DNA from: Octopus sinensis
Taxonomy: Eukaryota
Assembly: GCF_006345805.1 (NCBI RefSeq)
Contig: NC_043019.1
Location: 22,505,360 to 22,569,359, forward strand
DNA: 64,000 nt
Direction: 5' to 3'
The translations under genes and the position numbers were made by a program. Positions 6,401 to 58,976 of the stretch are shown here, piece by piece. Each line of letters begins with the position of its first letter. The stretch's first letter is position 1. The notes beneath the pieces were generated by a model, which saw only the letters and a program-made list of their open reading frames with translations, was not told the origin of the DNA and did no database searches.

Positions 6401-8096
6401 ATTGGCATGTTTGGAGTGGCAGAAAATATGGAGAAATTGTCAATAAAAATGTGAAACTTTGGAGCACTGACTTGATTGGAAGCAAACAAATCTTTGGGAA
6501 GGTGAACATCAGATGTGGTATATTCTAAGCTGATAGTTTATCTCCATTACTATTTGCATTGACCACAGAGCAATATTACAAAATGTCAAAATAGATTCTG
6601 TCGTGTCTGGGGAGAGTCATTTTTTTTGTGTGCCTTATAATGTAACACACTCACCGGTAAAATTTCCACTTACTTCTTATTTTTATTTTCCTAAAATTTT
6701 CATTGCTTCTTACAACCTTTTCAATGGCAAGATGCAATGAAAATTTTAGGAAAATAAAAATAAGAAATAAGAGGAAATCTTACCGGTGAGTGTGTTTTAT
6801 TATAAGGCACAAAAAGAAAATGACTCTCCCCAGACACAACAGAATATGCTTCAACATACGAACTCATATAAAGAATCTTGCAAACCAAATCCAAAAATCA
6901 AAATAGATTATGATTTGGGAAAAATGTATGGTCAGATGAATCTGGATGATTTAAAGCTTTATGTGAAAAATGAGAAGTAGCTGGAAAGCCTTGTGCATAG
7001 TGTTTGTATTTTCTCAAATGAAGTAGGAATGCAATGGATTGATGATATAAAGAGAATAATGGGAGCACAACAGAGAAAGAATATGAGATCAAAAACAGAA
7101 TGGATGAAATGCTGTGGCCAGTGGATTGAAAGCAACATCTGACAGTCTGGCCGGTCAAGGTGATTGTCCATCAATATCTTTGATGAACTGAACTACTGAT
7201 TCATTGAATTATAGGGCAAATAAGTAGCCGAGTATTCCAGAGACAAAGTACACTCAATGGATTACCCAGGCAAAAATCAGTTATTTTACATGGGGTGTAA
7301 TAAAGCTGGACTCGTGAATTACATGTATCGTTCATCCATTGCACTCTTAACATGGTTTCTGTTGACCCAGCTTCACTCACAAGTGTTGACCAGGGCTATG
7401 CTTGCCCAAGATGCCACAAGACAGGATAGAACTTGGAGTATCTTGATTGCAAAGTAAATACTTTAACCACTTGACCATGGTTTAAGCACACGCGCACACA
7501 TTCACTAGAACATATACACACTTATAATGCATACACAGACATACACACACACTCTCTCTCTCCCTCTCTCTCTCATATATAATGGATATGTACACATATA
7601 TATTCAATCACTACATATAACGTATATCTTTTATCTTTTACTTGTTTCAGTCATTAGACTGTGGCCATGCTAAGGCACCACCTTAAAGAATTTTTAGTCA
7701 AATGAATCAATCCCACTAATTATTTTTTTAAAGCCTGTTACTTACTCTATTGGTCTCTTAAGGGGATGTAAACACACCAACACTGGTTGTTAAATGGTGG
7801 CAGGAGACAAACACAGACACAAACACACACACATATGTAAATATATATGACAAGTTTCTTTCAATTTCCATCTATCATTCATAAGCCTTTAGCTGGCCTG
7901 AGGCTATAGAAACTGAAAGAAACTTGTCATATACATTTACGTTTGGTAAGTAGCTTGCTAACCAACCACATGGTTCCGGGTTCAGTCCCACTGCGTGGCA
8001 TCTTGGGCAAGTGTCTTCTGCTATAGCCCCAGGCCGACCAATGCCTTGTGAGTGGATTTGGTAGACGGAAACTGAAAGAAGTCTGTCGTATATATG

Positions 8097-10484: not shown

Positions 10485-10568
10485 TGGTACGATCGTTTCG
10501 CACTACATCTTTTTATTAAATGTGGTAAGTATTACAACAGTTTTAAAATGCTGAGCACTCATCAGCCA
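10485..10568 (-). ncRNA. Type I hammerhead ribozyme motif (left arm, same sense as the P4HA pre-mRNA)
   Basis: Minus strand TGG-CTGATGA-GTGCT...AGTGC-GAAA-C GATC G-TA|CCA; inverted copy of 10607-10698 with a 3 bp stem I. Confidence 0.7.
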
Positions 10569-10606
10569 TTTGATATGAAAATTATGTATTAATGGAAAAC
10601 CTCTAT

Positions 10607-10698
10607 TAATGGCTGATGAGTGTTCAGCATTTTAAAACTGTTGTAATACTTACAACATTTAATAAAATGATGTAGTGCGAAACGATCGTACCAAATTA
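10607..10698 (+). ncRNA. Type I hammerhead ribozyme motif (right arm of an inverted pair)
   Basis: TAATGG-CTGATGA(10613-19)-59 nt stem II (CATTTTA/TAAAATG, TGTTGTAA/TTACAACA)-GAAA(10679-82)-C GATC G-TA|CCA(AA)TTA. Palindromic GATC loop, GUA triplet; stem I is short or bulged. Confidence 0.75.
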
Positions 10699-16211: not shown

Positions 16212-16540
16212 ATGTGTGGTGAAAAAGTTGCTATTAGATTCGCTTAATACTACTGGTAGAAAAAAAAGGACCAAATGCAAGGGCGGTGGTAAAAGAAATT
16301 AATGGTGTGGAAGGCCCAGGAACTATCAACAAAAATGTAGCGCAAAACTGGTTCAGATGTTTTAAGGAAGGTGACACTAGCCTTAAAGACAAACCAAGGT
16401 CAGGACGGCTCTTCTATTGTGGGAGATGAAGCGTTGCTTGAAATGATTGAACATCCAAGCACAAGCACTCATAGATTATTGGTAGAACTTGGTCCTTCAC
16501 AAAGCACCAGCAATCAATGCTTCCATAAGCTTGGCTTTGT
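16212..16540 (+). mobile_element. Mariner transposase N-terminal remnant
   Basis: Frame reads VKEINGVEGPGTINKNVAQNWFRCFKEGDTSLKDKPRSGR (mariner HTH motif WF.RF..G...L.D.PRSGR), with stops upstream and truncation downstream. Confidence 0.8.
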
Positions 16541-16636
16541 GAACGTTTTTTTTTAAATACTTAATAACGTTCTGTTTATCATTTATGCAGTCATTGTAAT
16601 TGTTAGAATATCTTGTTGTTGAGATAGGCTCTCTTT

Positions 16637-16719
16637 CTTTCCTGATGAGAAGATTGCATTTTACACCGTTTATTCCTTTGGAATAAAACCAATGTTGTCT
16701 TTGAAACATATGTCGAAAG
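16637..16719 (+). ncRNA. Type I hammerhead ribozyme motif with long stem II
   Basis: CTTTC-CTGATGA(16642-48)-54 nt stem II hairpin-GAAA(16703-06)-C ATAT G-TC|GAAAG. Stem I CTTTC/GAAAG is perfect, the stem III loop is palindromic, GUC cleavage triplet ends at 16714. The first stem II pair is G-U rather than G-C. Confidence 0.85.
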
Positions 16720-19700
16720 TAAAAGAATTTGAATAACATCTGTTTACTTATACTACACAAATTACTGCACATTAACCCGGAGTTTCTACCTTTGAATAGG
16801 TCGCTTCATCCGTGTTACTTGCGTGAATTTTGCAACCCTGGTAACTGTTTATTGAATTTTCCATGTTAACGGTAAACAAAGGATAATTCATTAATCCATT
16901 TATATATGTATATATATATATATATAAACAGAGGTATACAACGACAGGCTTCTTTCAGTTTCTGCCTACAAATCCATTCCCTAGGCTTTTACCCGCCCAG
17001 TACTATTGTAGAAGACAGTTGCCCAAGGTGGCACACACTGGGATTAAACCCAAAACTATGTGGTTTAAAAGAGAACTTCTTAACTACACAGCCATGTGAA
17101 AGAGCTTATGTCCCCATAACGTAGTGGTTCAGCAAAAATGATCAGAGTAAGTACCAGGCTTTAAAAAAAAAAAAGTACTCTTCAAGGCAATGCCCCAGTA
17201 TGGCCACAGTCCAATGGCTGAGACAAGTGAAAGATAAAAGACAACCGATTAAAAAATTTTGACAGCTGAGCAACCTCGTCAAAGATTTTTGCAATTAAAC
17301 TCTCTTTATACGTATGCATACATTTGTATATCTGTATACACACACACACACACACATGCACATGCACACACACACACATCTGTATGTGTGATAATAAATG
17401 TAGAATGAAAAGTAAGACCATAACCAAACATGTGACTAATATTAAAAAGACTAAATGGCACCAGCTATAAATATCTCTCCTACAGCATGAAAACAAATGG
17501 ATAACTTATGAGGTTGAAATCTGAAGATACAGTGCATGCCTGAATACATATGTATAAGCAAACATACACACACACACATACTCTTTTACTCTTTTACTTG
17601 TTTCAGTCATTTGACTGTGGCTATGCTGGAGCACCGCCTTTAGTCGAGCAAATTGACTCCAGGACTAATTCTTTGTAAGCCTAGTACTTATTCTGTCGGT
17701 CTCTTTTGCCGAACCACTAAGTTACGGGGACGTAACACACCAGCATCGGTTGTCAAGCGATGTCGGTGGGGGACAAACACAGACACACAAACGTAGACAC
17801 ACACACACACACATATACATACATACACACATATATATATATGTATATACATATATATGGCGGGTTTCTTTCAGTTTCCGTCTACCAAATCCACTCACAA
17901 GGCTTTGGTCGGCCCGAAGCAATAATAGAAGACATTTGCCTAAGGTGCAATGCAGTGGGACAGAACCTGGAACCATGTGGTTGGTAAGCAAGCTACTTAC
18001 CACACAGCCACTCCTATGTTCATATATATATTAACACATACATACACATGTATACATGAATACATATACACATGCATATATATGTTTGTGTGTGTACGTG
18101 TGCGTATGTGTGTATCGTGAATGTGTGCAGACACACACAAAGATGTATATAGATATAGATATAAATATGGTTGTGTGGTTAAGGCGCTTGCTATGCGACC
18201 ACATGGTTTCAGGTTCAGTCCCACTGCACAGCACATTGGGCAAGAGTCTTCAATTCAATGCCAGCAAGACCTGGAAAAAGAAGGCCTTCCATTATGGAAA
18301 CAATTTGGTGCAGTAAAATCCAAAAGTAAGGTGCAAAGGCAGAGCTGAAAAAGCAGAGATCCAAGAGGAGAGAAGCAGAAATGACAACCCAGGGTTGAGA
18401 GAACAGCACAGAAAAATTGCTGATGACCTATGCTCCATAGGAAGCAAAGGACTTAAGTTCACAACTGTGTGGTCACCTCATATTGGAATACAAGGATGGG
18501 AAGACAATTACAACATTGGAAAATTGTAGCCTACTTCATTTCAACGCACAAACATCATCATCATCATCATCATTTAACCTCCAGTTTCCATGCTGGCATG
18601 GGTTAGAACTGGCAAAAGCAGGGATCACACTAGCTTCCATAGTCTGTTTTAGCTTGGTTTCTATGGTCAGATGTCCTCTCTAACGCCAACCACTTTACAG
18701 AGTGTACTGGGTGCTTTTAACATGGCACCACCAACAGGGCTTTTTATATAGCACTATCACTAATGCTTTTTACATGGCACCAACATTAATGCTTTTTACG
18801 TGGCACTTTGGTTTTAGAATATCACATGTACTCACAAATGCACAAATATACACAATTTATTCAGATTTTTAAAGTTTGGCATAATAATATAATCTTTGAA
18901 AACAATCCATTCAGTCTTTTAGAGAAAACAGGTCTCTTAAGAATTCCGCTTCTGTTTTTTTTTTCCTTCTCTTCCATTCTCACCCTCCTTAAAGAAATTG
19001 GCTGCTGTGGTAGTGGTGGTAGGACGGGGAGAGAGTGATTGAATGGAACAATTTCACTTTCAGAGAATTTGACAATCAAAATGTCAAGGACATTTCCTGA
19101 CATTGTTGACTTCTAGTCAATTCATCCTACCACACCACAACTAACAGCTTAAAATGGATTCAACTGTTTTTCGATGAAATTGATACCAAGATTTATTAGA
19201 AATTAAAGAAAATTCAGAATATAAGAATACCAGACATAGATATACACGACACATACACATGTTCATTAAACATACATATGTGTAATAAGAAGTTTGCTTC
19301 CCAACCACATTGTTCCGGGTTCAGTCCCACTGTGTAGCACCTTGGGCAAGTGTCTTCTACTATAGCCTTGGGCCAACCAAAGCTTTGTGAGTGGATTTGG
19401 TAAATGGTAACTAGAAGCCCATATGTGCATTTGTGTGTATGTGACAACTGGTTTTGGTGTGTTTACATCTCTGTAACTTAGCAGTTTAGCAAAAGAGATC
19501 AATAGAATAAGTACCAGACTTTAAAAAAAAATAAAAATTCATCAAGGCAGTGCCCCAGCATGGTCTCAATCTAATGACCAAAACTAGTAAAAGATAAAAG
19601 ATATATTTTTTTTATTAATATTTAGCATAAGCAACAGTGACTCAGGGGCCAAGAAATTTATGTGTTAGCACTTACCAAACTAGTCACAAATCAATGTGTT

Positions 19701-52896: not shown

Positions 52897-53964
52897 TATC
52901 CATTGGAATCTGACAAGTCGTCTATAAAGCTAAGTGGTTGTAGAGGGACAAACAGAGATATACACACATGTATGTATACATATATATGACGGGCTTCTTT
53001 CAGTTTCCACTCACAAGGCTTTGGACAGCCCAAGGTTATAGTAGAAGATACTTGCCATGCAGTGGGTCTGAACCCAGAACCACATGGTTGGGCCACCAAC
53101 ATCTTGCCACACCTGTGCCTATATTAATCCTGGAAGTTCTGCAATACCAGGCCAACCTGTGGCATAGGTGGAGCAAGCCTCTAACTTTTCATCTCTTTCT
53201 AAACATCAGTTTAATAGGGACTGTATCAGAGATTAAGCTGACAAGAATCAAATATTATTAGGAATTGTACAAAAAAATTGTTAAACTATTTTGTATAGGT
53301 GCAGGAGTGGCTGTGTGGTAAGTAGCTTGCTTACCAACCACATGGTTCCGGGTTCAGTCCCACTGGATGGCATCTTGGGGAAGTGTCTTCTACTATAGCC
53401 TCAGGCTGACAAACGCCTTGAATGGATTTGGTAGACAGAAACTGAAAGAAGCCCATTGTATATATGTGTATATAAATATATATATATATGTGTGTGTGTA
53501 TGTTTGCGTGTCCATGTTTGTCCCCCTAGCATTGCTTAACAACTGATGCTGGTGTGTTTATGTCCCCATAACTTAGCGGTTCAGCAAAAGAGACTGATAG
53601 AATAAGTACTGGGCTTACAAAGAATATGTCCTGGGCTCGATTTGCTCGACTAAAGGCGGTACTCCAGCATGGCCGCAGTCAAATGACTGAAACAAGTTGA
53701 AGAGTATCTTGTAGAAGTATAACCAATTTATTGTAGATAGATTTTTTAAAAATCTTATATGGATTCCGATTGAGAACTATTGCTCTAAACCATCAATATG
53801 TCTCATTCCACCCTGCAAGTGGCTGCTCTGTGTGGTGAGCATACTTTGCACACCCTATGCTACACTACTTCCGTAATGCCTTTGATCATGGCAAGACTGG
53901 CCCAGGGTTAAACTAAGATGATGAATACACCAGCATCAGTTGTCAAGCGATGTTGGGGGGACAA

Positions 53965-53991
<27 letters not shown>

Positions 53992-53995
<4 letters not shown>

Positions 53996-54397
53996 AGTAA
54001 ATGAAAGAATGGAGTCGAACAACGATTTTAACAAAATTCCTTTACTCTCGACATATGTTTCGAAGACTGCATATTCTTAATTCCGAAGGAATAAAGGGTG
54101 CATTATGCCGCCTTCTCATCAGGAAAGACTGAGAAGGCGGCATAATGCACCCTTTATTCCTTCGGAATTAAGAATATGCAGTCTTCGAAACATATGTCGA
54201 GAGTAAAGGAATTTTGTTAAAATCGTTGTTCGACTCCATTCTTTCATTTACTTATAGTTAAAAAAAACACAAATTTCCACACGAGAACACGGGATTTCTG
54301 CCCTTGGCATCTAGCTTCAACTGTGTTTTTTGACGTGAATTTGCTACCCAGGTATCGGTTAACCGAATTATCCATACTAGGATAATTCATTCACCTA

Positions 54398-54400
<3 letters not shown>
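53992..54400 (+). mobile_element. Hammerhead-bearing Penelope-like/retrozyme remnant inserted in the (TA)n tract of a SINE
   Basis: 127 bp inverted arms with no mismatch seen (53992-54118 and 54130-54256), 11 nt spacer, then a tail sharing CGTGAATTT..GC.ACCC.GGTA and GGATAATTCATT with 16810-16895. The host SINE resumes after the TA run. Confidence 0.75.
54045..54127 (-). ncRNA. Type I hammerhead ribozyme motif with long stem II
   Basis: Minus strand reads CTTTC-CTGATGA-GAAGGCGGCATA...ATTCC TTC GGAAT...TATGCAGTCTTC-GAAA-C ATAT G-TC|GAGAG. All core nucleotides canonical; same family as 16637-16719. Confidence 0.87.
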
Positions 54401-58895: not shown

Positions 58896-58976
58896 ACCTT
58901 ACATCTGTTTCTCCTATAAAAAGCACCGTACTTAGAACTGAGTGCTTGTGCATCACTTTATAGCTTCCTCAGAGCC
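58896..58976 (-). ncRNA. Degenerate hammerhead ribozyme motif with long stem II
   Basis: Minus strand CT-CTGAGGA-AG CTATAAAG...TTTTATAG GA-GAAAC-AGAT-GTA|AG. Core intact, loop one change from palindromic AGCT, stem I only about 2 bp. Confidence 0.5.

Follow-up and report, generated by a model that had tools for sequence, protein, structure and literature searches.

Predicted long-armed type I hammerheads in Hydra-like Penelope elements of Octopus sinensis

The Octopus sinensis sequence analysed here, a stretch of 64,000 nucleotides that we call the window, carries at two distant sites a hammerhead-like motif with a stem II of 54 nt. The question raised by this locus is whether so long an arm is kept as RNA structure by the elements that carry it, and what it might do there. 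A sequence-only reading of the window had placed a long-armed hammerhead at both sites, and every pairing that it quoted is present in copies A and B. The features are listed below by window position.

16542..16901 (+): copy A, the 5'-truncated 3' end (pLTR) of a Hydra-like Penelope element, bordering (TA)n
16637-16719 (+): copy A hammerhead, an 83-mer in type I order with a 54-nt stem II
16637..16641 (+): copy A stem I, 5' strand CTTTC
16642..16648 (+): copy A catalytic core C3-A9, CUGAUGA (CTGATGA in DNA)
16649..16702 (+): copy A stem II, 54 nt, placed by fold and family alignment
16703..16714 (+): copy A GAA, palindrome ACATATGT and C17, with the predicted cut after 16714
16715..16719 (+): copy A stem I, 3' strand GAAAG
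16841..16846 (+): putative 5' splice donor CTG/GTAACT of a 5'-UTR intron, proposed from the sequence
16902..16927 (no strand): (TA)n-rich target microsatellite adjoining copy A
54045-54127 (-): copy B hammerhead, laid out as in copy A
53992..54129 (-): copy B inverted arm, -79 to +58 from the cut, carrying a complete hammerhead
54130..54398 (+): copy B main arm, -68 to +201, whose first base is U7
10488..10690: third long-arm hammerhead lineage, an inverted pair (10488-10565 on the - strand, 10613-10690 on the + strand) with a 59-nt stem II
58900..58972 (-): fifth core match, with a 54-nt spacer, resembling another listed family

Both copies contain the core CUGANGA ... GAAA ... UH in type I order, and the window holds five matches to the core pattern against 0.01 expected. 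Stem II of copy A is built from 6 bp, a 1x1 mismatch, 5 bp, an asymmetric loop and an 8-bp apical hairpin; its stem III is the palindrome ACAUAUGU, which forms 8 bp in the dimer. Folded alone, stem II reaches -11.5 kcal/mol in copy A (z -3.41; 0/200 shuffles as stable) and -14.3 kcal/mol in copy B (z -2.46; 5/200 shuffles as stable), and the entire 83-mers are no stabler than shuffles (z -1.28 and -0.64, respectively). No Rfam hammerhead family was found at E<=10 over 16550-16950. At five loci, two of them with short-arm motifs, no Rfam match attained the gathering score; arm length alone does not explain this miss, because the short-arm loci were missed too.

Both window copies are dead fragments. 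Copy A has a net 15-nt private deletion near 16742 and a private T at 16702 (C11.1 to U, giving a G-U pair), where C is found in 28/30 family copies and in most RNA contigs aligned. The contrast between GAAGAT/GTCTTT in copy A and GAAGGC/GTCTTC in copy B had been listed among the kept pairings, at the base of stem II; the GTCTTT change is private to copy A. The core in the main arm of copy B is incomplete because this arm begins at U7, and the two arms of copy B are identical (127/127 nt), so that a read-through RNA is predicted to form one long hairpin and not a hammerhead. Elsewhere in the window lie a U2 snRNA match at 53114-53289 (-), probably a pseudogene (54.6 bits against a gathering score of 46); a Mariner transposase fragment at 16292-16411 (+), just 5' of copy A (Pfam HTH_48, E 4.7e-05); and, at 6648-6792, a near-perfect hairpin of ~60 bp with a below-threshold miRNA match, possibly a short inverted-repeat element.

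Copies A and B belong to large repeat families of 5'-truncated copies that end at (TA)n (2,576 and 3,199 first-look candidates, 40 of each scored). Family copies run 5' into an RT/EN ORF, which rules out a non-LTR retrozyme made of non-coding short tandem units. Two full-length relatives, loci L283 and L284, have a 775-aa RT/GIY-YIG frame, and L284 is organized as pLTR-ORF-pLTR with 2,863 nt between its two hammerheads (a unit of <3 kb). By eye, this single ORF consists of RT followed by a C-terminal GIY-YIG, with CxxC and CxH and no CCHH; it has DKT instead of DKG, and its N-terminal motif is RWL, as against RWK in the Hydra clade. The C-terminal GIY-YIG, DKT, CxxC/CxH, size and (TA)n target match those of the Hydra clade (PMC8557442). 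The CxCX5C linker before the EN is absent from the A/B lineage, which has an Asn-rich stretch instead (L284:2210-4534), and is present in a second long-arm lineage (loci L140 and L142), where it resembles the linker of Hydra-1_Obim. We use the term Hydra-like because of this missing linker; judged by these motifs, the A/B parent fits a Hydra-like Penelope element, and the earlier assignment to Penelope-type hammerheads stands. The A/B lineage targets (TA)n without the linker, an observation that runs against the proposed connection between linker and targeting. Pfam gave no family for the 775-aa ORF, and protein searches in NCBIfam and PDB yielded nothing meaningful; one further protein search returned 2,181 relatives and another no match. 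A Naiad parent, which would have overturned the statement that Naiads lack hammerheads, is ruled out by the position of the EN, C-terminal here and N-terminal in Naiads. The 3' ends of the published Naiad_Obim and Naiad_Ovul consensus sequences carry GAAA 5' of CTGATGA, an order that disqualifies their half cores as long-arm type I motifs.

The youngest intact subfamily is represented by L283 and L284, which show 5 differences in 2,337 nt. A U4C core was found in every copy seen of this subfamily (L282, L283, L284 and L286, on C20, C1, C1 and C12 of G000, respectively), which retains a well-paired 56-nt arm (z -3.13) and an intact 775-aa ORF; its close relatives have a U4 core. The genome-wide total for the U4C pattern, 2,745 matches, is unusable because the control gives 2,293.

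To count the motifs across the genome, we collected exact matches to CTGANGA-N-GAAACRNNYGTH by the spacing between the core halves. This pattern returned 35,291 matches with arms of 40-70 nt (control 499) and 14,567 with arms of 10-39 nt (control 337), and motifs with at least 40 nt form the majority (35,291/49,858). The long-armed form had been put forward as a possible distinct variant; it does lie outside the published descriptor, but most motifs of this genome have it, and it is not peculiar to two elements. Clustering of 205 long-arm motifs from the fetched loci, a small and non-random sample, produced 29 clusters, whose arms measure 46-69 nt. Between lineages the arms cannot be aligned and have no loop sequence in common, and arm length is labile, with related arms of 38, 44 and 69 nt. 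Metagenomes gave at least 120 matches that look like chance, 1/120 combining stem I 3/3 with stem II of at least 6/11 pairs. Short-arm hammerheads also occur in retrozyme-like tandems with a period of ~558 nt (G000:C1:257506-258667 and 399015-400174).

Conservation of pairing was assessed with one representative from each of 12 lineages, in an ungapped count that started at the core and moved outward. The grouping into lineages was made by eye and excluded 6 singleton clusters, and the shuffles had no tree model. Stem I pairs 1-3 were formed in 33/36 cases against 17.2 in shuffles (0/20000 shuffles), and pairs 4-8 in 28/60 against 27.0, with no register kept. For stem II, the corresponding values were 39/48 against 19.3 for pairs 2-5 (0/20000), 24/36 against 16.6 for pairs 6-8 (107/20000), 33/48 against 21.1 for pairs 9-12 (5/20000) and 23/48 against 20.0 for pairs 13-16; pairing is not kept beyond pair 12. 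All 29 clusters give the same picture. On average, the genome clusters form 2.6/3 pairs in stem I and 7.7/11 in stem II, compared with 1.1/3 and 4.2/11 in the chance matches from metagenomes.

Within the A/B alignment of 18 sequences, 90.7% of cells were paired against 85.8 in shuffles, and 29 double-change cells were present against 11.6, with double changes in 6/11 lower stem II pairs. The apical helix was 84% paired and had a double change in 1/8 pairs only. A control slid by -2 also contained 9 pairs with double changes, in 15 cells as against 29. RNAalifold did not return the hammerhead from this alignment, giving a weak alternative at -3.5 kcal/mol with a covariation term of -0.03. Mismatches in stem II are frequent: along spanning-tree edges, 57/97 single changes either create or destroy a pair, and 16/33 double changes preserve pairing. 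Selection on RNA structure in the parent elements, as claimed at the outset, is supported by these comparisons of sequences for the lower ~12 stem II pairs across 12 lineages, but not for the apical hairpin. The two-copy comparison from which that claim arose is thin, and the support comes from the deeper 12-lineage test. Its U-A to A-U double change exists but lies at the terminus of a helix, where 17/30 family-A copies lack one of two A's; the apical ATTCC/GGAAT pairing is present in both copies but is broken in some abundant subfamilies.

In tandem copies the motif follows the stop codon of the ORF and precedes the next ATG by ~255 nt, and a putative intron (donor CTG/GTAACT, acceptor TTACAG/CATATG) separates the cut from the ATG; no spliced joint for it was seen in RNA contigs from 8 of the 24 listed runs. 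We mapped insertion ends relative to the predicted cut (position 0) at 30 loci (L224-L253) chosen by their 3' end, 29 of which had a scored main arm. Main arms ended at 197-201 in 29/29 scored loci and inverted arms of the same set at 52-58, and family A has a similar pair of 3' ends. Both fixed 3' ends (+58 and ~+200) adjoin a TTCATT...ACTTA-like stretch. Among the 29 main-arm 5' ends, 6 fell at -155..-145, possibly a transcription start, and 7 at -14..-2; none (0/29) lay within -1..+3 of the cut, and there was no pile-up at it. A raw genome-wide count yielded only 14 matches with three non-consensus bases directly 5' of the cut, some of them not true junctions. On these two counts we rejected cleaved RNA as the likely template. 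The lack of main-arm starts at the cut matches internal initiation on uncleaved RNA, which has been demonstrated in vitro for the Poseidon element of anole (PMC11167929).

When two copies were co-folded, the minimum-energy structure was a double hammerhead (-34.0 and -41.6 kcal/mol). Stem III has 2 bp in the monomer, where it costs energy, and 8 bp between two molecules; its two central bases, left free in the search pattern, pair in 25/29 clusters compared with 37.5% of the at least 120 chance metagenome matches. For the copy A monomer in a context of 230-350 nt, the pairing probability was 0.09-0.18 for stem II pairs 2-5 and 0.01-0.04 for stem I, and among 13 copies folded in context stem I reached 0.5 in only 2, in the shorter context only. 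PLE hammerheads have low, dimer-dependent activity (PMC4209133; reviewed in PMC6765202), and that of the anole element cuts only with its protein, its template being uncleaved (PMC11167929). We favor, with a probability of about two in three, a model in which these are type I hammerheads of a Hydra-like pLTR that would cut weakly as dimers, likely aided by protein, with the long arm as a clamp. Two copies joined through the palindromic stem III would cleave weakly, probably assisted by the protein that the element encodes, and the long stem II would stabilize the closed core, its length and sequence being free as long as ~12 pairs are kept. Such freedom of stem II to lengthen while paired would follow from a stem I of 3-4 pairs and the absence of a conserved loop contact. 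Reverse transcription would run on uncleaved RNA from two fixed internal sites, and cleavage would come late or on the side, in tandem transcripts that offer two copies for pairing. Pairing out to pair 12 exceeds what a clamp obviously needs and counts against this function of the arm. The long arm kept with a U4C core in the youngest intact subfamily likewise speaks against a strong role for cleavage, but is suggestive only, because U4C, which lowers activity, is tolerated in a viroid (PMC3088659).

The same two observations, conservation to pair 12 and a well-paired 56-nt arm beside U4C in young, near-identical intact elements, are what would be expected if the arm docked a protein or had a regulatory role, its partner being the element's RT/EN product or a host factor, with the fold kept mainly as an RNP scaffold and cleavage secondary. 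The protein requirement of the anole hammerhead (PMC11167929) and the insertions without a cleavage footprint agree with this explanation. However, no loop sequence is common to the lineages, clusters differ in arm length (46-69 nt), arms of <40 nt are found in 14,567 motifs, and the viroid precedent (PMC3088659) softens the argument from U4C; we consider this role of the arm the main rival, but unlikely. Its boldest form, with equally low odds, would make ~35,000 animal motifs, which standard searches do not see, protein-switched ribozymes with a docking site, their fold kept for RNP assembly despite a crippled core, and would recast the role of hammerheads in Penelope elements.

Far less probable is that the arm contacts an extended stem I at a distance, yielding a fast monomeric ribozyme. 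By eye, stem I of A/B can be extended past an internal loop, and L284 folds in this way, but pairing beyond pair 3-4 is not conserved across lineages, loop nucleotides are not conserved, and stem III remains a palindrome of 2 bp, as is typical of hammerheads that cleave as dimers. We also set aside a shifted tertiary contact on a long, interrupted stem I, which is not conserved across lineages. We give equally little credence to the arm as a neutral insertion in a decaying motif, with covariation arising from shared descent or from the search pattern: the many stem II mismatches, the apical helix broken in some subfamilies and the weak folding in context would suit it, but unalignable arms of different lineages still pair in register, and chance matches to the pattern pair much less than the clusters do in both stems.

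What we describe is an unusually abundant structural variant of an already known association between ribozyme and retrotransposon, and its cleavage is predicted. The surprise is limited because the Penelope association and the dimer mode were already known. The role of Penelope-element hammerheads is treated as open in the literature (PMC8557442, PMC11167929), and this genome offers a natural series of a dozen or more lineages with arms of 12-70 nt, intact young elements and U4/C4 sister subfamilies, with which the contribution of cleavage and that of the arm can be told apart at the bench. Published animal hammerhead counts miss a large class: the 2014 descriptor (PMC4209133) limits stem II to 3-7 bp and its loop to 3-10 nt, for a maximum of 26 nt when optional extras are included, and the 54-nt arm falls outside it, as do 35,291/49,858 motifs, whose arms of at least 40 nt exceed the limit.

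The closest published relatives are the Hydra-clade PLE hammerheads, including Hydra-1_Obim (Craig et al. 2021, PMC8557442), which are likewise type I with a short stem I and a palindromic 3-4-bp stem III, lie 100-200 nt from the element 3' end, and occur in elements with a C-terminal GIY-YIG, DKT and (TA)n targets. They differ in the arm: by our own count, 26 Hydra rows in File S2 of that paper have 12-26 nt between the core halves, as against 46-69 nt here. All metazoan alignment rows examined have short arms, and the arm is about twice as long as in these published animal examples. With the minimal PLE hammerheads (Cervera and de la Pena 2014, PMC4209133) our motifs share the place in the pLTR, dimer dependence, G10.1-C11.1, no tertiary loop contact, high sequence variety and compensatory changes; the pLTR location, palindromic helix III and G10.1-C11.1 were all found here, copy A with its private G-U. 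Dimer cleavage of PLE hammerheads has been reported by Lunse et al., as cited in a review (PMC6765202). Our literature search found no description of an animal long-arm class; Lunse et al., Arkhipova et al. 2017 and supplement file 1 of PMC4209133 could hold one.

The Poseidon element PAc of Anolis (Frangieh et al. 2024, PMC11167929) also has a hammerhead near the ORF start, AT-rich targets, two internal RT start sites and an uncleaved template, the last two being what we propose here. It belongs to another PLE clade and starts reverse transcription at adjacent sites within the ORF, unlike the start sites proposed here, which are ~143 nt apart in the 5' UTR. The 'long helix II' hammerheads of chrysoviruses and megabirnaviruses (PMC13725137) are type I as well, without a loop-loop contact and with an ORF downstream, but there 'long' stands for 6-8 bp; these ribozymes also have a long helix III and cleave efficiently as monomers. 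The stem II is atypically long, as first noted, relative to the Hydra rows but not to spike moss, where PLE-X1_sMoe and PLE-X1_sTam of Selaginella (PMC8557442 File S2) have ~54 and ~48 nt between the core halves by our own count and constitute a precedent. Those motifs are marked in that file as deviating from the canonical structure, and no covariation analysis of them was seen. The Selaginella elements are single families of EN-less plant PLEs, whereas the octopus motifs form an animal radiation with tens of thousands of copies.
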